64,000 nucleotides of DNA from contig CAYNHV010000002.1 of NCBI GenBank assembly GCA_964397315.1, forward strand, positions 23,167-87,166, in the 5' to 3' direction. This DNA is from an uncultured Methanosarcinales archaeon (GTDB lineage: Archaea > Nanobdellota > Nanobdellia > Woesearchaeales > UBA12501). How positions within the stretch are numbered: position 1 is the stretch's first letter; each line of letters opens with the position of its first letter. Positions 2,040 through 61,716 of this stretch are shown here, in pieces. Made by a program: the position numbers and the translations under genes. The notes below the pieces were generated by a model. The model did no database searches. It was not told where the DNA came from and worked only from the letters and a program-made list of their open reading frames with translations.

Positions 2040-2750
2040 GTGTATTATTGTTGATTTGAGGTGGTGATTTTTATTATAATATTTTCAGGTGATTCCCGGC
2101 CTCTGGAGGATGATGTTTTTATGCTTATAACTCATGGTACTTCCTTTTGGAAGAATGTGTTCCTGCTGGCTTTTCATGGTAATTCCCACCCTTGGGTAGA
2201 CGATATTTTTATGATTATGATTCCTGGTACTTCCCTCCCTTTAGGTGAGGGGGTGTTTGATTCAATTTTTCCTGATACTTCCCTCCCTTACTGCAAAACC
2301 ACCCAGCAGGTTATCTGATTCTGTCTCCGCACAACTACACTCTCCTGCCTCTAATAAGCCCACCCAATCATATGCTTAAAGCGCTCTGTGGAGTTGGTGC
2401 GCTAAGCATATGTGAGGGGGGAGGCGGGAGGGCTTTATCCAGATGTAACTGCGATTGAGGCGGTGGTTAAGCCTGGAGGAACAGAGATTGCAGAAAAAGC
2501 ATTTACAAAAATCCCTGAACAGGGAGGCGGTAAACTCTGGAAAAATTACCAGCTTTACATTAAACTTATGGCATATTGACCAAACACTATCTGAAGGGGC
2601 AAACTCTGGGGGAACACCTCTTACAAGATGGTTATCTTCAAGATTTTTTAAACAGGGCAGCGGCAAACCCCTGAAGAATGCCATTTATGGAACAATAAGT
2701 CCAACAGAGTCTCATTCTGCGGCTTTGTTCTCAGAAAAATTTTTATAGGA
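2040..2750 (+). repeat. Modular intergenic repeat element, copy A
   Basis: About four degenerate units of the tandem ~30–45 bp repeat (tttttatgattatgattcctggtacttccc-like). These are followed by the conserved core aataagcccacccaatcatatgcttaaagcgctctgtggagttggtgcgctaagcatatgtgaggggg (hairpin arms 2369..2412), then the tgtaactgcg...ggcggtgg...agcctggagg module and an aaacagggcagcggcaaacc module. Same family as copies at 11.7, 17.6, 37.7, 43.2, 46.6 and 51.4 kb. Confidence 0.8.
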
Positions 2751-5155: not shown

Positions 5156-7940
<2,785 letters not shown>

Positions 7941-11253: not shown

Positions 11254-11634
11254 CTAATCTTCCTTTGTAGGGTCCACAAGGAACTTGTTCTCCTTGAGAA
11301 TGTTCTGCCCTATCAGAATACTGTATTTCATGTGGCTCCTGTCAGCAAGGGTGAACTCAGAACTTATCTTCTTGTTTGATATCTCAATCTCTGTCCTCAC
11401 CATGGGCCTCAGAGCATTGCCTGACGCTGATTTTATCATCGCGGCCTTCAGCACAGGCCCCAGCCTGAGGTCTGCCGCAAGCTTTACATCAATAGAGCTT
11501 TTTGTAGCTCCAGTGTCTATCCTCGCAGTCACTTCCCTCTTTCCCTTTGGGCCGTGCACTATTATCCTCTCATTCAGCCCAACAACTGTCCTGTTCTTGT
11601 ACTGCACTACTATATCCCTTTTTGCAAGAGCCAT
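11254..11634 (-). CDS. RimK-associated retropepsin-like aspartic protease (Zn_protease/DUF785-like)
   Basis: IDTGAT (D-T/S-G-A) active-site motif; 126 aa; 4-nt spacing to the ATP-grasp gene. Confidence 0.65.
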   Translation of the reverse strand: MALAKRDIVVQYKNRTVVGLNERIIVHGPKGKREVTARIDTGATKSSIDVKLAADLRLGPVLKAAMIKSASGNALRPMVRTEIEISNKKISSEFTLADRSHMKYSILIGQNILKENKFLVDPTKED

Positions 11635-11699: not shown

Positions 11700-12110
11700 A
11701 GACAATCTCATGAGTGAGGATTATGAAAGGATAATGCTGCCCAGAGCATTATTTAAAGCTTATAATACCTCCTAAGATTGTCACTGCCCTGTTTATGAGC
11801 TTTAAGAATGATGCTAATTGTAAGAATGGAAATTCATCCAGATGTTGCCATCCACCCCCTTCAACAGCTTGAGCGCACCAACCACAGAAAGCACTTTAAG
11901 CATATCATCGGGCGGGCTTATCTATGGCAGGGGAGTGGAGTTGTGCGGAGACAGAAGGTGTGAACCTGCTCTCTGGTTGTGCAGAAGGGGCGGGATGTAC
12001 CAGGAATCATAACCATAAACAAACCACTCCAAGGGCGGGAGGACTCCGGAGTTAATAAGAATAGAATATCGTCTCCTCATCTTATATTATCTCCCCGCCT
12101 TTAATCCGCA
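11700..12110 (-). repeat. Modular intergenic repeat element, copy G (minus orientation)
   Basis: Reverse complement of 11882..11920 reads ataagcccgcccgatgatatgcttaaagtgctttctgtggttggtgcgctcaagctgttgaagggg. The reverse strand also carries ttatgattcctggtacatcccgcccc, ccgcacaactcc and aaacagggcagtgacaatc modules. Lies upstream of the minus-strand protease/RimK operon. Confidence 0.75.
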
Positions 12111-17485: not shown

Positions 17486-17569
17486 TTAAATAATTTTCCG
17501 GCTATAAGGGGATAATGCTCTGGCAGTTTTTCTCCAGCCGCTCCAACCATTAAAGAGATGTATTTTTGT

Positions 17570-17925
17570 TGAATCCTCATGGTAATCCATGTCCTTTTAG
17601 TGAGGAAATGTTTAAGTTAGTAATTCCTGGTGCTCCCCTGAGGGATAATAGATTTATGATAATAACTCCTGGTACTTCCCACCCTTACTGCAGAACCAGA
17701 CAGCGGGCTTACTGCTTCTGAAACAGCACAACTTCGCTCTTCTCTTTCCAATAAGCCCGCCCCTTAATTTGCTTGGGTGCGCTCTGGCTGGGGTTTGTGC
17801 TCTCAGGCTGTGTATGGGGGCGGGGAGGCGAGCGAAGCAGTTGTAACTCTGAACATGGCGGCGGCAATGTCAGGAAGATCTGTTATCCCTGGCTTAACCT
17901 GTCTCTTGTGAGCCCTGGCAAACTC
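17570..17925 (+). repeat. Modular intergenic repeat element, copy B (more diverged)
   Basis: Modules present: ataataactcctggtacttcccacccttactgcagaacc...cacaacttcgctcttctctttccaataagcccgcc...gggggcgggg...tgtaactctgaacatggcggcggcaatgtcaggaag. The catatgctta stem is degraded. Lies between the lysA start and the asd stop. Confidence 0.7.
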
Positions 17926-37686: not shown

Positions 37687-37739
37687 GCTGATTTTAGTGT
37701 GATAATATGTATTTAAATGTTGCTTTAGGAAGAGGGTTT

Positions 37740-38400
37740 GTTTATGATTATGATTCATGGTGCTTCCCTGGAAATGGAAAAATTATGATTATTATCCCAG
37801 GTGCTTTCCGCTATTTAGAGAATTTGCTTGTGTTTATGATTCCAGATTCCACCCTCCCTTAGGTTTGTTTATTATTATGATTCCTGGTGCTTCCCTGGGA
37901 ATATTGAGTTTATGATTGTTACTCCAGGTGCTTCCCAGAGGGGTAATGGGTTTGCGATTATTATTCCTGGTAATTCCCACCCTCTGGAAGATAATGTTTT
38001 TATGGTTATAATTCATAGTACTTCCCTCCCTTTCTCCAGAACCATCAGGCAGGTTTTTTCCTTCTGGAACAGCACAACTCTCTGCTTCCGCCTCCAATAA
38101 GCCCACCCAATCATATGCTTAAAGCGCTCTGTGTGGGTTGGTGCGCTCAAGCTGTTGAAGGGGGCGGTGGGTGGGTCAAAGCGGCTGTAACTGCGAGTGG
38201 GGGTGGAGGATAAGTCTGGATTAATCACAATATTTAGAGGAGACTCAATTTTGTAGTACTCATACGCTTAAAGCGCGCTTTTTGTGGAATTTCACTGCGC
38301 TCACTCCCACCTGCGCGTGAACTGCGCAATGCCGTTCTGGTGGAGAAATAAGAAGGATTTATTATATTCATAAAACTAAATTCAGAGGGAGTTAACAATA
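37740..38400 (+). repeat. Modular intergenic repeat element, copy C
   Basis: About seven tandem degenerate units (gtttatgattatgattcatggtgcttccctgg...). Core ccaataagcccacccaatcatatgcttaaagcgctctgtgtgggttggtgcgctcaagctgttgaagggggcgg at 38094..38165, then ggctgtaactgcg...ctggattaatc...cgcgtgaactgcgcaatgccgttctggtggagaa. Immediately upstream of corA. Confidence 0.8.
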
Positions 38401-43189: not shown

Positions 43190-43700
43190 CTGTATTTAAG
43201 AGGGTATGCTTATTATTCCTGATACTTCCCTGGGAATCTTGAGTTTATGATTGTTATTTCTGGTACTTCCAGCTATTTAGAGAATTTGCTTGTGCTTATG
43301 ATTCCAGATTCCTCCCACCCTTACTGCAGAACCGCCTCGCAGGTTTTTTCCTTCCAAAACCGCACAACTTTCCTCTTCTGCTTCCAATAAGCCCGCCCAA
43401 TCATATGCTTAAAGCGCTCTGTGGGTTGGTGCTCTGAGCATATGTGAGGGGGATGGAGGGTGGGATTTGTCCATCTGTAACTGTGATAAGGGAGGTGGAG
43501 AACTCTGGATTAATCAAAACACTTAGAAGATGCTCAATTTCGTGGAATTTCGCTGCGCTTAATCCCACCTACGCGTGAACAGAGTAACGCCGTTCCGGTG
43601 GAGAACTCAGGAGGGATCCCCTTTTTACAAGGAGCTAGGTTTGGATTAACCAGAATAATCAATGCAGTCCTGCCAGAATAAGCCCTCACAAATCCAAAAT
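43190..43700 (+). repeat. Modular intergenic repeat element, copy D
   Basis: Tandem units (attattcctgatacttccctggg..., gtttatgattgttatttctggtacttcc...). Core ccaataagcccgcccaatcatatgcttaaagcgctctgtgggttggtgctctgagcatatgtgagggggatgg at 43385..43455, then ctgtaactgtg...ctctggattaatc...cgcgtgaacagagtaacgccgttccggtggagaa (shared with copy C). Upstream of the MoxR gene. Confidence 0.8.
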
Positions 43701-46639: not shown

Positions 46640-47290
46640 AGGCTGTGCTTTAGGTGGTATGATGAGGAGTTTATTATTGTGATTCTAGATTTTCCATCTG
46701 GGTAATAATCTTGTGAATCTTATTCCTGATAATTCCCCAGCTATTTAAAGAATTTGCTTGTGCTTATGATTCCAGATTCCTCCCACCCTTACTGCACAAC
46801 CGCCTCGCAGGTTCACACCTTCTGTTTCTGCACAACTTTCCTCTTCTGCTTCTAATAAGCCCGCCCAATGATATGCTTAAAGTGCTCTGAGTGGGTTGGT
46901 GTGATTAGCATATGCATGGGGGAGGAGATTGCCAAACGAAGTTTGGCAATTCTAATACTGCAAAACAAAGTTTTGCAGGCCTGAAAATACTTTGTATTTT
47001 CAGTAATCCCAGACGCTTGACTAAGCGAAGCTTAGGCAAGTCTTATAATTTCGACTTCAGTCGGAATTATATTTAAGCTTGCGAGTCGGGATTATTTTTA
47101 GGCGGGACAAAGCGGTTGTAACTCTAAAGAGGGCGGTGGTAATGCCTGGAAAAGAATACCTCTTTCGCATTAAGCTTATTGCAGAGCTGAACATAACCTG
47201 AACAGGGTGGAGGTAAACTCTGGAGGAATACCTTTTACAAAAAGTCCATCTCCAAGATTTTCTAAACAGGGCAGAGAACTCCCTTGTGAT
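46640..47290 (+). repeat. Modular intergenic repeat element, copy E
   Basis: Tandem units, then core ctaataagcccgcccaatgatatgcttaaagtgctctgagtgggttggtgtgattagcatatgcatggggg at 46853..46925. Followed by an extra insert holding the hairpin aagcttgcgagtcgggattat (also in copy F), then gttgtaactctaaagagggcggtggtaatgcctggaaaag and aaacagggcagagaactcc. Upstream of the phosphoesterase gene. Confidence 0.8.
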
Positions 47291-50988: not shown

Positions 50989-51198
50989 GGGCCATTAGCT
51001 TAGTCTGGCAACTGGTTACGCTCAGTTGACACGCAAACGCAAGAGGGGCGTAAAACTGCGTTTTAGCCCCTCGACGAACGTGAGATTTGAGCGTCAGTTG
51101 GGCAATTGGAGCACTGCTCTTATATGACTGTGTTCCGCGCAATGCTGGACACTGCTTGAGCAAAGCAGCGGTCGGGGGTTCAAATCCCCTATGGCCCA
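50989..51198 (+). tRNA. tRNA gene with two large introns (D-loop ~95 nt and anticodon loop ~38 nt); anticodon appears to be UAU (Ile) but is uncertain
   Basis: Acceptor GGGCCAT/ATGGCCC with discriminator A. T-arm GGGGG-TTCAAAT-CCCCT. Anticodon stem CTGCT/AGCAG with loop CTTATA|intron|A. D-stem GCTT/GAGC flanks a ~95-nt insertion. 210 nt minus ~133 nt of introns gives ~77 nt mature. Confidence 0.5.
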
Positions 51199-51290
51199 TT
51201 TTTTATTCGTACCACCGAGCAAAGCGAGTGTGGTACCTGATGGCCGGGTCAAGGAAGAAGACCCTTGGTTCTGAATCCCCTATGGCCCAT
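51183..51290 (+). repeat. att-like direct repeat: the tRNA 3'-end 17-mer AATCCCCTATGGCCCAT occurs twice (51183..51199 and 51274..51290)
   Basis: Exact 17-nt duplication. The second copy is preceded by a degenerate copy of the tRNA 3' half (gagcaaagc...ggttctgaatcccctatggccca). Confidence 0.6.
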
Positions 51291-51399
51291 GGAATAAAGG
51301 CAAAACGCCGATGAAGTCGGCTTTTTGCCTTTTTATATGCCTGATAATCCCGATGAGCTTGCGAGTCGGGATTATCTATGCATTTTATTTCCCATGATA

Positions 51400-51700
51400 T
51401 ATTCCACCTTATATGCATTTGTTTTGGGTGATTCCTCATAGTAATTCCCGCCCTCACTTTACAACCAACAGGCAGGTTCATACCTTCTCCAACTGCACAA
51501 CTCCCTGCTTCTCGCCCCAATAAGCCCGCCCAATGATATGCTTAAAGTGCTCTGAGTGGGTTTGTGCGCTAAGCATATGTGAGGGGGTTGGGTGGCGGGC
51601 GAAGAGGTTTGTATAGCTAAACATGGCGGCGGCAATGCCAGGAGGAATCAGATTTTTATTAGACTAAACTCAGGAGGCATCCCCTTACATTAAATGAGCA
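51400..51700 (+). repeat. Modular intergenic repeat element, copy F
   Basis: Short tandem-unit remnant (tgattcctcatagtaattcccgccc). Core ccccaataagcccgcccaatgatatgcttaaagtgctctgagtgggtttgtgcgctaagcatatgtgagggggttggg at 51519..51590, then gctaaacatggcggcggcaatgccaggagg. Preceded by the hairpin taatcccgatgagcttgcgagtcgggatta. Upstream of the tRNA at 51842. Confidence 0.8.
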
Positions 51701-55259: not shown

Positions 55260-55586
55260 TTATGGAATATCAACCCCATGCTTTCGTAAAAATTTATCGA
55301 GTTGCTCCGGGGTAGAATTGGAAACTTTCTTTTCTAAAAGGTCAAGAGGGACCGAATCGAGTATAGTTCCAATGGAACTAAGGTAGTAGCCGAATCTCTT
55401 GAGTTTATCAATAAGCTTAAGCCTTAATACATCTTCTTCGCTATAAAGATATCTTTGATTGTTATGATGCTTTTTTGGCTTTAAAAGATTCAAATCTTTA
55501 TAACGTTGAATTGTAGGGTCGGAAACACTAGTATCAGCCTTTTCCTTTAGTTGACTTAGGCTTAAATTGTACTCTAACTCTTTCAT
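55260..55586 (-). CDS. MerR-like HTH transcriptional regulator (108 aa)
   Basis: RYLYSEEDVLRLKLIDKLKRFGYYLSSIGTIL resembles the MerR wing/dimerisation helix. Confidence 0.45.
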   Translation of the reverse strand: MKELEYNLSLSQLKEKADTSVSDPTIQRYKDLNLLKPKKHHNNQRYLYSEEDVLRLKLIDKLKRFGYYLSSIGTILDSVPLDLLEKKVSNSTPEQLDKFLRKHGVDIP

Positions 55587-55901: not shown

Positions 55902-56303
55902 ATGGGAGAGGATGATGGCGGTGTTTTTCAGGACATGATCTCCGGGAGGATTAAGGACATCCGGGAGGCCATTGACGAGATTGAGGGGGAGATAAAGCAG
56001 AGGCGGGACATTGATGAGCGGGTTCTGGAGGAGATTAGGGCTGAGATTCTGAAGGTTCGCAATCGCATTCTGGAGGTTGAGCAGTTCACAGGCTCTTCCC
56101 AGTCCGGTGAGCTTCCGGGCGTGGATACTCTGGAGCGGGAGGTTGTGAGCCTGGAGGGTGAGAAGCGCATGGAGTCTGTCTCCTGCTGGAGGGATTTGAC
56201 GAGCCTTCGGAAGGAGCTGAGGCTTTACATGAGGGAGCTGAATGACCTGTTGAGAAAAGCGAAGATGGTGAGGCCGGATGCAGGAAGTGGAGAAGCTGCT
56301 TAA
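55902..56303 (+). CDS. Coiled-coil protein (133 aa) upstream of the ATPase
   Basis: Heptad-rich, Glu/Arg-rich sequence. Overlaps the ATPase gene start by 26 nt. Confidence 0.4.
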   Translation: MGEDDGGVFQDMISGRIKDIREAIDEIEGEIKQRRDIDERVLEEIRAEILKVRNRILEVEQFTGSSQSGELPGVDTLEREVVSLEGEKRMESVSCWRDLTSLRKELRLYMRELNDLLRKAKMVRPDAGSGEAA

Positions 56304-58320
56304 GAAGCTTGAGCCTCAGCTCGGCGGGAGGGCGGATGAGATTTACAGGGTTTACCTGCTGGAGGATTCCAGGGGGCGGAATGAGATTCATCAGTATCTT
56401 ATGACGCTTTACAATCAGAGCCTTTCCACTCCGTTGGATGACAAAGTTGTGCTGGTTCCTCCGCCGGGGGATTTGGCAGGGGGTGAGATGCCCATAGCCA
56501 CGGTGAGGTATGCTGACCGCGACCTGTATGAGTTCTCCCTGAGGAGGGGTGAGCTGCCCATGCATTGCCTTGTGGTGGGTGATACGGGCAGCGGGAAGAC
56601 GAATTCAATCTACGCTCTGATTTCCAATCTTATGCTGCAGAGGATTCCTTTTTTGATTTTTGATTGGAAGCGTGAGTTCAGGAGGATACTCAATTCCGAG
56701 AGCTGCTCTGATGTTCTTGTTTTTACTGCCGGGGGTGAGGCAAGTCCTTTTTACTTCAATCCCAGGATTGCGCCGAAGGGTGTTGATCCTGAGGTTTATC
56801 TCAAGAAGGAAGTGGATAATATCGCCTATGCCTACTTTTTGGGAGAGGGTGTTGGGGAGCTTTTGAGGGAGGTTCTTCATGAGACAAATGAGGATTACGG
56901 CGTTTACTCCGGTGATTTAAAGGAATACCCGAATTACTTTGATGTTCTGCAGAAGCTTGAGGGAAGGAAGCCAAAGGGCAGGGAGCTTTTATGGTATCAG
57001 TCCACTCAGAGGGCGTTGCGCGCCCTTACCTTCGGCAAGTTCGGGAAGGCCATTAACATAAGGCAGGATGTGGATGTTGAGTCCCTGCTGGAGAGGAATG
57101 TGATTATTGAGCTGGACGGGCTTAACAAGGCTGACGGCAAGTATATCATGACCTCATTGCTTTCCAGGATTTACTTTTACAGGCTGGCTCATGCTCACGA
57201 GAATAAGGGCTTGCACGCGATTATTATTGATGAGGCGCATCATTTGTTTTTGAGAAAGCCTTCTTATGCGCAGGGTGAGGAGCACATCACGGATATTCTG
57301 CTGAGGGAAGCCAGAAGCCTGGGGGAGTGTCTTGTCCTGTCTGACCAGTACCCTCACATGCTCACATACACTGCCTTTGGTGTTTATACCAAGATTGTGA
57401 TGAGCCTGGGTAATCGCACTGATATTAACCTTGCAGCGGATATTCTGCTGCTGGGTAAGGATGAGAGGGAGTGGCTTGCCAAGCTGCCAATAGGCTCGGC
57501 AATAGTGAAATTAAAAGCAAGGTATCCTTCTCCTTTTCTGGTTCATTTCCCGCTCATGAAGCTTCCAGAGGAGCCTGTTACTGACGATATTGTGAGGGAG
57601 AGGATGAAGGGGTATTGGGAAGAACAGAAGGTTATTCCGGTTATTCCAGGCCAGCAAGAGGGTTATTCCGGCCCTGTTAAGCCAGAGGGGGTTGTTCCGA
57701 AAGGTGATAAGGGTGGTGCGGAAAGAGCGGAATATCTCCTGCTCCTTGATGTTTTGAGGTTTCCTCTCTCCTCTACTGTTAAGAGGTATGAGAGGCTGGG
57801 CTTTAGCAAGAGGGCGGGCAATGACGCAAGGGGCACTCTTGAGGAGCAGGGGCTTGTGAGGGCTGTTGATGTTCCAACAAAAAAGGCAAGGGTGAGGCTT
57901 CTGGAGCTTACTGACAGGGGCAGGGAGCTTCTAAAGTCCCGGGGTGAGGACATAAGCAATTCCATGAGGTTTGGGAGCGTGGAGCACCTTTACTGGGTTG
58001 CCATACTCGCAAAGGAATCCAGGATAACGATATTTTGCGAGGGCAGGGGTTTTGAGCTTGAGGTTGAGCACGCTATTGGCGGTGGGAAAACTGTTGACCT
58101 TGCGGCAGTAAAGGGGGAGAGGAGGATTGCCTTTGAGGTTGAGACAGGAGCTTCTGATGCTGTATCCAATGTCCGTAAGTGTTTGGAGGCCGGTTTTGAG
58201 AGGGTTTACTGCCTTCCCACATCGCACACTGCAATGAAGAAGATATCGCGGGAGCTGGAAAAGGCCGGGCTTGCAGGGGATAAGAGGGTTAAGCTGAAGC
58301 ACGTGAAAAAAATGTTTTGA
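56278..58320 (+). CDS. HerA/FtsK/VirB4-like P-loop ATPase (AAA_10/DUF87-type), probable DNA translocation or conjugation ATPase
   Basis: Walker A VVGDTGSGKTNS and Walker B IIIDEAHHLF (DEAH). C-terminal wHTH-like region plus a possible PD-(D/E)xK-like region. 680 aa. Confidence 0.6.
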   Translation: MQEVEKLLKKLEPQLGGRADEIYRVYLLEDSRGRNEIHQYLMTLYNQSLSTPLDDKVVLVPPPGDLAGGEMPIATVRYADRDLYEFSLRRGELPMHCLVVGDTGSGKTNSIYALISNLMLQRIPFLIFDWKREFRRILNSESCSDVLVFTAGGEASPFYFNPRIAPKGVDPEVYLKKEVDNIAYAYFLGEGVGELLREVLHETNEDYGVYSGDLKEYPNYFDVLQKLEGRKPKGRELLWYQSTQRALRALTFGKFGKAINIRQDVDVESLLERNVIIELDGLNKADGKYIMTSLLSRIYFYRLAHAHENKGLHAIIIDEAHHLFLRKPSYAQGEEHITDILLREARSLGECLVLSDQYPHMLTYTAFGVYTKIVMSLGNRTDINLAADILLLGKDEREWLAKLPIGSAIVKLKARYPSPFLVHFPLMKLPEEPVTDDIVRERMKGYWEEQKVIPVIPGQQEGYSGPVKPEGVVPKGDKGGAERAEYLLLLDVLRFPLSSTVKRYERLGFSKRAGNDARGTLEEQGLVRAVDVPTKKARVRLLELTDRGRELLKSRGEDISNSMRFGSVEHLYWVAILAKESRITIFCEGRGFELEVEHAIGGGKTVDLAAVKGERRIAFEVETGASDAVSNVRKCLEAGFERVYCLPTSHTAMKKISRELEKAGLAGDKRVKLKHVKKMF

Positions 58321-60671: not shown

Positions 60672-61487
60672 TCATTTCTGGCTCCTTTCCTCCCATCTGC
60701 TCAGGATTTTCCTGCTGGTCTGGTGTATGGCCTCAAGGGATTCCTCAAGGCTGCAGGACTTCTGATAAAGGGCTAAGTATTTCTCCGAGTTCGTCTCCGG
60801 GATTCCGAGAGCCTGGGCGACGACGTAGGCGGTGGCTTCTGCCTCAAGCTCCTTCTGCTCCCTGGTAAGCTTTGGCCTTGTCTCCGGGTTCCAGTGCAGC
60901 AGCTCGTGGGCAAGCTCGTGAATGAGAATTAAAGCTTTCTCAGTGGGGTTCTTGCTGCTCTGGATTTTGATTTTTCCGTTGGTTGAGACTCCCTCGCAGT
61001 TGGCAAGGTCTGCGAATTCAACCTCAATATTCCTCTCCCCGGCCAGTTTGAGGAGCTTTTCCAGTGCCCCGGCGTGGGTGTCATCTATGGGCTTGAATTC
61101 TATCTCCGGCATCTCCTCGCCTTCTGTCTGGCTGATGTCAAAAACGCAAACCGGGAAAAAGAAGGAAACGTCCTTCTCAACCTCAATCTCCTCTCCTGTC
61201 TCCGGGTCAACCTCTGTCTCCTTCTTCTTATAAGTGGATGGGGCAAGTATGCTTATTCCTTTTTCTCCTTTTCTGACCTGCCTTCCCAGCTTCTGCCATG
61301 TCCTGTATCCCGCCACTCTCGTGGCCTGCGGGTTCTGAAAGTGAATCAACAGCGTGTTCCGCCATGAGTAGGAATGAAAATGCGCCATGCAGTCCAGGAC
61401 AGCCCTGAACTCCTCTGAGGACTGAATCTCCCTGATTCCCTCGCTAAGCTTCTTTAACAACGCCTTTGTCTTCTCTCTGCCTTTCAT
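60672..61487 (-). CDS. ardC: ArdC-like antirestriction protein (ssDNA-binding N-domain plus HExxH metalloprotease C-domain)
   Basis: N-terminal domain FHSYSWRNTLLIHFQNPQATRVAGYRTWQKLGRQVRKGEKGISILAP is the ArdC-N/DUF1738 signature. C-terminal LILIHELAHELLHW. ORF extends to 61541; Met start taken at 61487. Confidence 0.75.
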   Translation of the reverse strand: MKGREKTKALLKKLSEGIREIQSSEEFRAVLDCMAHFHSYSWRNTLLIHFQNPQATRVAGYRTWQKLGRQVRKGEKGISILAPSTYKKKETEVDPETGEEIEVEKDVSFFFPVCVFDISQTEGEEMPEIEFKPIDDTHAGALEKLLKLAGERNIEVEFADLANCEGVSTNGKIKIQSSKNPTEKALILIHELAHELLHWNPETRPKLTREQKELEAEATAYVVAQALGIPETNSEKYLALYQKSCSLEESLEAIHQTSRKILSRWEERSQK

Positions 61488-61488
61488 T

Positions 61489-61716
61489 TTATAAATCCTC
61501 CTCTCCGAAATTGAAATGAAGCTGCTCTGAATTAACCTCAACCTTCGACAGCCTCACCCGGCTGCCCTTGACCTCAACCTTGAAACCTGCCAAAAACTGC
61601 ATCCCTGTTTCCTCAACGAATTCCATCACCTCGCTTTCCAAAGCCGGGATGTCCTCGGCCAGCCTCTGCCTGAAATAAAGGCTTCTCAAAACCCTTGCTG
61701 CCTGCTTAACCGTCAT
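61489..61716 (-). CDS. Small hypothetical protein (75 aa) upstream of the ardC-like gene
   Basis: ORF only; stop immediately adjacent to the ardC start. Confidence 0.3.
   Translation of the reverse strand: MTVKQAARVLRSLYFRQRLAEDIPALESEVMEFVEETGMQFLAGFKVEVKGSRVRLSKVEVNSEQLHFNFGEEDL

Follow-up and report, generated by a model that had tools for sequence, protein, structure and literature searches.

Short TATA-like sub-repeats stand in tandem at 2085-2290 of the window (the whole 64-kb stretch of DNA analysed here, from a DPANN archaeon), and the question raised by this locus is what kind of sequence they belong to. An initial annotation had reported such sub-repeats here and at 37740-38040, where both arrays are indeed found, and its description of their pyrimidine block, TTTATGATTATGATT ... 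GGTACTTCCC(TCCC), is correct. Two readings had been offered: the arrays could be multiplied archaeal BRE/TATA promoter modules, or the expandable part of a mobile element. Our analysis indicates that the sub-repeats form the left module, variable in length, of a small dispersed intergenic repeat element that had not been described before.

Unit arrays and element architecture

Copies were aligned in register on the block ATTCCTGGTACTTCCC to place the unit starts. This 16-nt anchor, with up to 3 mismatches allowed, has 15 matches in the 64-kb window against 0.53 ± 0.73 expected, a number reached by none of 100 dinucleotide shuffles. All 15 lie inside element copies and in the orientation of the element, with none elsewhere in the window. 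Each unit is made up of the anchor ATTCCTGGTACTTCCC(n)CCC between an AT-rich segment and a short variable tail, and the period from anchor to anchor is 41-48 nt. The anchor carries the most information per column across 23 units (1.40 bits, compared to 0.93 in the AT-rich half and 0.41 in the tail). Units share ~62% identity on average and differ by indels, which is why Tandem Repeats Finder, suggested earlier as a check on the copies, called no array at the A or C sites, even at score 30.

Seven copies of the element are present in the window, six on the plus strand (A-F) and one on the minus strand (G). All seven are intergenic, and the element measures ~230-640 bp. Their features are as follows:

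About 2070-2660, plus strand: copy A, whole element.
2070..2290, plus strand: 5′ unit array of copy A, the locus of the initial annotation; five units by anchor register, with anchors at 2082, 2130, 2172, 2220 and 2268 (spacing 48, 42, 48 and 48).
2264..2481, plus strand: last unit of copy A, core (hairpin CATATGCTTAAAGCGC...GCGCTAAGCATATG and G tract) and first 3′ motif GGCGGTGGTTAAGCCTGGA; nhmmer 204.6 bits.
2482..2660, plus strand: 3′ module of copy A with further GGnGGnGG..CTGGA-type motifs (e.g. 2523-2541); 83% identical to the 3′ module of copy E; repeat families D5 and D12.
11825..12075, minus strand: copy G, two units (anchor at 12007, covering 12007-11992, and a degenerate one at ~12055) and core, 160 bits; upstream of and co-oriented with the gene at 11634..11254.
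17563..17685, plus strand: 5′ unit array of copy B, two to three units by anchor register (anchors at 17623 and 17665, and a degenerate one at ~17575).
17660..17890, plus strand: last unit of copy B, core and 3′ motif; closed by a 13-nt inverted repeat; folding z -2.76.
37725..38032, plus strand: 5′ unit array of copy C, seven units by anchor register (anchors at 37753, 37794, 37839, 37880, 37921, 37963 and 38011); repeat families D4 and D8.
38006..38356, plus strand: last unit of copy C, core, 3′ motif (38202-38220) and a 3′ extension common to copy D; 201 bits.
43205..43322, plus strand: 5′ unit array of copy D, three units (anchors at 43215, 43256 and 43301), of which D1-D2 are reproduced in an independent assembly.
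43296..43623, plus strand: last unit of copy D, core, 3′ motif (43491-43509) and 3′ extension; 205.6 bits.
46667..46790, plus strand: 5′ unit array of copy E, two to three units (anchors at 46722 and 46769, and a degenerate one at ~46685); E3 is 98% identical to D3.
46764..47274, plus strand: split core of copy E and 3′ motifs at 47132 and 47206; profile match.
51418..51647, plus strand: copy F, a single unit (anchor at 51434), core and 3′ motif (51625-51643), between two tRNA genes; 197.8 bits. A possible second, degenerate anchor at 51378 makes one to two units.

This census agrees in large part with the initial annotation, which had given about seven units for array C and two to three each for B, D and E. 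Array A had been put at about four units, where five anchors are found; copy F had been given one unit, close to the one or two counted here. All six listed copies are present, and the seventh, G, on the minus strand, had been missed.

The profile (nhmmer) recovers the cores of the seven window copies at 160-206 bits. The conserved core of ~200 nt contains, in order, TTCCCnCCCTTACTGCAGAACC..GCAGGTT..GCACAACT..CCAATAAGCCCGCCCAAT, an apical hairpin (CATATGCTTAAAGCGC / GCGCTAAGCATATG) and a G-rich tract; the hairpin is bordered by C-rich and G-rich tracts. In copy E the core is in two pieces (46764-46926 and 47102-47153), between which lies a hairpin-rich insertion of ~175 nt (46927-47101). The core is followed by a 3′ module of one to four motifs of the form GGnGGnGG-AA-nYCWGGA, for which there are 13 matches against 1.84 expected, nine of the 13 being in elements. 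Cores are 64-74% identical to each other, and the copies are old. Central blocks such as AATAAGCCCnCCC and GCACAACT are invariant in all copies, and such invariance in old copies hints at a constraint that a purely selfish repeat would not need.

In a scan of GTDB representatives, the core pattern was found in one other genome only, the 'Candidatus Woesearchaeota' MAG JAWOBY01, which contains four copies of the element, two of them head to tail. Homologues of the proteins flanking the window copies are labelled Woesearchaeota or Nanoarchaeota. A metagenome scan with the core pattern returned three matches, each due to chance and in unrelated sequence; two viral scans came up empty or with a chance match in a GC-rich coding region; and blastn against phage and plasmid records gave no match.

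A short imperfect inverted repeat links the last unit to the first 3′ motif; its position is homologous in B (13 nt, 17641-17653 / 17878-17890, 92% complementary), D (25 nt, 72%), E (16 nt, 75%), F (20 nt, 75%) and G (14 nt, 86%), and the core can therefore fold back on either strand. In the MAG the two arms have changed in parallel, so that TTTTTCCT... pairs with ...AGGAAAAA; as read, the arms are TTTTTCCTGG...CCCGCCC and GGGCGG...AGGAAAAA. Tested as terminal inverted repeats, they are imperfect (13-26 nt, 72-92% complementary), and they are internal where the array has more than one unit. A larger arrangement, in which the 5′ and 3′ arrays would be long composite terminal inverted repeats in the style of foldback transposons, finds no support beyond this short inverted repeat: taken in full, the 5′ array and the 3′ module align only weakly as inverted copies, with z of just 0.6-3.8 and values above 3 in B and F alone.

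The units and the promoters of the genome

The promoter motif of this genome was learned by EM from the upstream regions of 45 of its genes, and the scoring matrix was refined from 17 sites. The motif, GAAAnATTTAWAWA, is a textbook archaeal BRE/TATA, typically located ~30 nt before the ATG, and the training promoters score 11.2-18.9 bits. In contrast, the best site upstream of each unit scores between -5.9 and 6.3 bits, with a median near 0. Positions of at least 8 bits number 110 in the window on both strands, and none of them is in any 5′ array.

Promoters of canonical quality are found beyond the element. Six of the seven copies are co-oriented with the next gene or tRNA downstream, and directly before that gene or tRNA, 30-160 bp from the end of the element, stands a canonical promoter of 13-16 bits:

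2734, plus strand: promoter after copy A, 15.0 bits; downstream gene, Na+/H+ exchanger.
38461, plus strand: promoter after copy C, 14.0 bits; downstream gene, CorA.
43695, plus strand: promoter after copy D, 14.5 bits; downstream gene, MoxR ATPase.
47304, plus strand: promoter after copy E, 16.1 bits; downstream gene, metallophosphoesterase.
51803, plus strand: promoter after copy F, 13.2 bits; downstream, tRNA.
11671, minus strand: promoter after copy G, 13.3 bits; downstream gene, retropepsin-like protease.

Copy B is located between two minus-strand genes and has no co-oriented gene downstream. A tRNA with introns also occurs in the window.

In the sister genome the AT-rich segment is different. 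The main unit type in the MAG has TTTGCGGTGGTTTTTCC where the window has TTTATGATTATGATTCC, the AT-rich 'TATA-like' part being missing, and the MAG counterpart of TTTATGATTATGATT is TTTGCGGTGGTTTTT. MAG units score -5.0 to 1.2 bits, compared to 13.2-17.4 bits for the promoters downstream of the same MAG elements.

In haloarchaea, rRNA operons are preceded by tandem reiterated promoters, and every repeat there has a good promoter whose transcription start has been mapped. The promoter idea of the initial annotation corresponds to this model, and the resemblance is that direct repeats stand upstream of a non-coding region in an archaeon. Were it to apply here, TBP/TFB would be recruited at every unit, and transcription of the core or of the downstream gene would be tuned by how many units an array contains. 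Strings resembling TTTAT(G)AT are indeed present in the units, and the highest-scoring of these, A4, B2 and C7, reach 5.1-6.3 bits on the genome's own matrix. However, the units as a whole are at background, far below real promoters, and do not contain the A-rich BRE; each co-oriented downstream gene already has its own promoter after the element, and copy B has no such gene to serve. The AT-rich half is also less conserved than the anchor, and it is not kept in the sister genome. We therefore regard tandem promoters as very unlikely, and the earlier proposal of multiplied BRE/TATA modules does not hold up in any of the tests applied. From the unit scores, the MAG units and the stronger conservation of the anchor it follows that 'TATA-like' is a label for composition and not for promoter quality.

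History of the arrays and resemblance to known repeats

MAG contig L002 is collinear with the window at 47.3-51.2 kb, with flanking proteins 74-88% identical, and in both genomes an element is present at E as well as at F. At the E site, the MAG has a head-to-tail series in which at least two to three partial units precede one core and a single unit precedes another, where the window has two to three units and one core, interrupted by the 175-nt insertion. At the F site there is about one unit in both genomes, and the MAG core is degenerate (27 bits). Array and element number at the orthologous E site thus differ between the two species. Woesearchaeota whose CorA or Na+/H+ exchanger is 65-75% identical lack the element at these orthologous loci; a clean pair of filled and empty sites was not found, and relatives have a NUDIX gene at the C site instead.

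That the arrays could be a mis-assembly artefact or a cryptic protein-coding repeat has a negligible probability. Short-read contigs from SRR7048227 and from the MAG do end inside the element, as expected for a genome-wide repeat, and ORF 2061..2318 does run through array A. However, units of ~62% identity are too divergent for an assembler to collapse or expand, and the independent Logan assembly of SRR7048227, the only sample from which exact-protein look-ups returned contigs, matches units D1-D2 over 162/162 positions, which shows that the arrays are not an assembly artefact; its contig ends at the point from which D3 and E3 share 98% identity. The run of ORF 2061..2318 through array A is due to the four spacings there being multiples of 3. 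This ORF and ORF 37912..38100 both exist, and had been taken from the start as spurious products of the periodicity. This is borne out by array C, which spans three frames with three frame changes. No reading frame is conserved or shared among the copies.

The relationships among units point to an old layout. The nearest relative of a unit is usually the unit at the same position in another array, with pair identities of 0.98 (D3-E3), 0.82 (C2-D2), 0.81 (C3-E3, A5-B3 and B2-C4) and 0.80 (D1-C4). Mean unit identity is 0.62 within arrays and 0.63 between them. Same-position kinship together with equal identity within and between arrays shows that the multi-unit layout predates dispersal and was copied along; the arrays are thus old and inherited, and not the outcome of recent local slippage or ongoing local expansion. 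Array C is composite: its units 1-3 match a D/E-type array, the third being cut right after CCCTTA as in the D/E type, and its units 5-7 match units 2-4 of A. C1 and C4 share an identity of 0.85 (repeat families D4 and D8), which marks a block duplication within the array.

Some unit tails resemble other parts of the element. The tail of A4 matches the G tract of the element (z 3.2-4.0), beta-type tails are similar to the left hairpin arm (z 3.7-4.1), and the tail of C1 is similar to the tail of a 3′ motif (z 4.4); the other tails, which are the majority, have no significant match to the element body. Taken with the head-to-tail elements at the E site of the MAG, these matches suggest that units are perhaps internally deleted elements.

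As to class, the element is a modular BOX-like or MITE-like dispersed repeat and not a proven MITE. It is small and non-coding (~230-640 bp, with ORFs inconsistent in frame), multi-copy and intergenic (seven window copies, four in the MAG), and it has the fixed end modules and variable tandem module of BOX-type repeats (1-7 units per copy), differing between genomes as at the E site. Neither target-site duplications nor sharply shared termini were seen at the limits set by similarity between copies, where the exact termini are undefined. No transposase or candidate mobilising gene was found among the annotated window ORFs, and with it no cognate IS, apart from a tRNA-associated integrase. This integrase lies within an apparently unrelated integrated element in the window.

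The resemblance of the element to BOX repeats of Streptococcus pneumoniae and S. suis, which have the layout boxA-(boxB)n-boxC (PMC3049150), is drawn on architecture alone. Both are small, non-coding, intergenic and dispersed, lack a transposase of their own, and combine fixed end modules with a 40-50 nt module in variable tandem number; in both, the length of a locus varies between genomes (between strains, for BOX), foldback is predicted and ORFs arise as a by-product (PMC3049150). The element differs from BOX in its reiterated module, which is found at the 5′ edge and is a repeat of the left arm (the anchor), not a spacer module in the interior as boxB is; in having one to four reiterated motifs on the 3′ side too; in its far more diverged units, which form position-specific subtypes; and in its DPANN archaeal host. 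The BrickBuilt MITE of Porphyromonas gingivalis (leader-[23 nt]n-tail) likewise has a minisatellite inside (PMC4596501). The two have in common that they are intergenic and multi-copy, with a VNTR between unique modules, small inverted-repeat ends, putative in the element, and a narrow host range. BrickBuilt repeats, however, are 23 nt long, near-perfect and without spacers, and their promoter activity was shown experimentally (PMC4596501), whereas the units described here are 41-48 nt long, ~62% identical and do not score as promoters on the genome's own matrix. Prokaryotic and archaeal MITEs, such as SM1-SM4 of Sulfolobus and those of Halobacterium and Haloquadratum, agree with the element in size (~250-700 bp), in being non-coding, multi-copy and intergenic, in inverted-repeat or foldback potential and in lineage restriction (PMC10969869). 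In contrast to MITEs, the terminal inverted repeats of the element are weak, no cognate IS, transposase or target-site duplication was found in the window, and its most conserved part is central.

With moderate confidence, we consider the units to be the left-hand module, in reiterated form, of a dispersed repeat that is modular, non-coding and specific to its lineage. The array would travel with the element when the element is copied, and its length would then shift via duplication or deletion of blocks of units. Head-to-tail multimers of the element may have shrunk by internal deletion to give units. The AT-rich 'TATA-like' segment would then be a junction, where one unit ends and the next begins, and not a promoter. 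For the past, we infer mobilisation in trans by some enzyme, and likewise the deletion route to units. The second proposal of the initial annotation, the expandable part of a mobile element, thus fares better than the promoter reading and is partly supported, in a weak form only. The units are the variable module of a dispersed and lineage-restricted repeat, with array length differing between copies and between species; on the other side, neither transposase nor target-site duplication nor clean empty site was found, and the phylogeny of the units speaks for old arrays.

Other explanations and biological meaning

An alternative is that the units are iterated double-stranded DNA binding sites for a sequence-specific protein. 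The protein could belong to the element, as the subterminal-site binder of its own mobilising enzyme, or to the host, as a regulator or chromatin protein that acts at the adjacent promoter. We rate this as unlikely; it is compatible with the dispersed-repeat explanation and possibly part of it. No part of the unit is better conserved than the 16-nt anchor, which recurs in constant orientation every 41-48 bp, with an inverted version on the 3′ side, and elements end 30-160 bp before canonical promoters, with co-orientation in six of seven copies. However, no candidate protein was identified, the spacings of 41, 42, 45, 47 and 48 are not in constant helical phase, and the neighbouring genes (Na+/H+ exchanger, CorA, MoxR, phosphoesterase, tRNA and protease) have no common function. 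It is rather improbable that the core is instead a multi-copy structured non-coding RNA gene, with the units as its 5′ leader or as reiterated 5′ ends. Conservation is blockwise, as in such a gene, and includes central motifs that do not vary among the copies or in the MAG. Every copy has the apical hairpin, in which some changes are double or compatible with G-U pairing (GCTTGGG/CTCAGGC in B against GCTTAAA/..TAAGC elsewhere), and the variable base of the pyrimidine block pairs with the 3′ motif as U-A, A-U, G-C and G-U. In B, C and G, however, the hairpin has a degraded lower stem, and the RNAalifold consensus from 9-11 sequences shifts with the input set, with an unfavourable covariation term (+1.64 and +0.62). 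The consensus is unstable because the pyrimidine blocks can pair with several different G tracts, and only the apical hairpin is stable across the runs, which used two overlapping sets of copies. Rfam 15 contains nothing relevant at gathering or permissive E-value thresholds, and the elements have neither a canonical promoter upstream of the putative RNA nor a consistent oligo-T terminator downstream.

Folding energies bear on the same alternative. Raw folding of the sense strand is much better than that of the antisense strand in B, L001 and L002b, but the preference is gone once composition is controlled: whole cores fold somewhat more stably than their dinucleotide shuffles, to an equal extent on the sense (mean z -1.55) and antisense (mean z -1.82) strands. 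An RNA hairpin in each unit was rejected as well, since arrays C and A alone fold no better than shuffles on either strand (z -0.08, +1.05 and +0.04). The folding signal is that of a DNA-level inverted repeat, and the data neither require nor contradict an RNA. Further candidates were considered. A CRISPR-like array was rejected, being at odds with the degenerate repeats and with 'spacers' of just 14-21 nt that form conserved subtypes. C/D-box sRNA, K-turn, BHB-intron motif, ORB boxes and G-quadruplex gave no consistent fit in spacing or signature, judged from sequence.

Returning to the dispersed repeat, the invariant central blocks and the co-orientation of six of the seven copies with a downstream gene, which may reflect a host-level role, are the reasons for keeping a functional reading, albeit at low probability. 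In this reading, the anchor units would be iterated recognition sites, and the core a functional module, either a protein-binding platform or a small RNA, placed before many unrelated genes. A lineage-specific regulatory or chromatin-organising system, acting across the genome, would then be stronger or weaker depending on unit number. In a variant of this reading, the arrays would be the traces of an unusual replicative, rolling-circle-like mobilisation in which elements were multimerised head to tail.

Small dispersed repeats are poorly catalogued in archaea. A 2024 review lists archaeal MITEs for Sulfolobus, Halobacterium, Haloquadratum, Desulfurococcus and a few others only (PMC10969869), and no description was found in the literature consulted for DPANN archaea or Woesearchaeota. 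The element family would be a new archaeal example of a BOX/MITE-like repeat. It also has practical consequences, as it breaks short-read assemblies of these genomes and gives rise to spurious ORFs that gene callers may annotate, and its variable arrays could be used as strain markers. More generally, AT-rich periodic sequence before archaeal genes should not be called a promoter until it has been scored on the BRE/TATA model of the genome in question. Should a host function lie behind the central blocks and the co-orientation, the element would provide a handle on gene regulation in an uncultured, genome-reduced lineage.

Transfer RNA genes on either side of copy F

Copy F of the dispersed repeat element lies between two tRNA genes:

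50990-51198 (+) and 51266-51290, tRNA gene with two introns
51841-about 51990 (+), second tRNA gene (GCCCCGGTAGTGTAG...)

The first intron of the upstream gene is located in the D-arm region and the second follows the anticodon loop. ARAGORN reported zero tRNAs across the whole window, and the Rfam alignment to this gene covers 51100-51198 only. The two-intron tRNA is retained in the collinear contig of the 'Candidatus Woesearchaeota' MAG JAWOBY01 (L002, about 745-537, minus strand). Its 3′ end (GGTTCTGAATCCCCTATGGCCCA) is repeated about 70 nt downstream, a duplication that is also present in the MAG and that resembles an att-site remnant. In the second tRNA gene, the D-loop region is about 26 nt longer than in the MAG orthologue (L002 20-1), and these additional nucleotides are probably a lineage-specific intron.

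Hairpin repeats and intergenic sequence

The core of copy E is split by a 175-nt run of small perfect hairpins (46927-47101), the last of which (AGCTTGCGAGTCGGGATTAT) is found again beside the tRNA upstream of copy F (51298-51377), and also at the corresponding place in the MAG (L002 about 500-440). The hairpins at these three sites represent a second small-hairpin repeat family.

Within the tail of unit E2, the second unit of the copy E 5′ array, there is a strong antisense promoter-like site, AAATTCTTTAAATA (46742-46755, minus strand; 12.3 bits against the genome's own BRE/TATA matrix); the homologous unit tails in copies C and D read TCTAAATA and score lower. Copies C and D share an additional 3′ extension (38225-38356 and 43514-43623, respectively), which in copy C includes, at 38260, a partial second copy of the apical hairpin's left arm (TCATACGCTTAAAGCGCGC).

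In another Woesearchaeota MAG (GCA_053532255.1), a 600-bp intergenic region upstream of a Na+/H+ exchanger (L014 542-1138) contains a GC-rich island amid otherwise AT-rich DNA; this island may be an unrelated non-coding RNA. The region has no match to the dispersed element of copies A-G.

Protein-coding features and a putative integrated element

An intein (Intein_splicing domain) is present within gyrB (5517-7925, minus strand), as assigned from the precomputed Pfam list of an identical Logan contig (L007). Downstream of copy F, the following genes were annotated:

from 51993, directly after the second tRNA, tyrosine integrase with zinc ribbon
55260-55586, MerR-type regulator
56278-58320, HerA/FtsK-type ATPase
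60672-61541, ArdC/IrrE-like protein

Several ORFs between 51993 and about 63000 are without a Pfam match. This region looks like a mobile element integrated at a tRNA gene.
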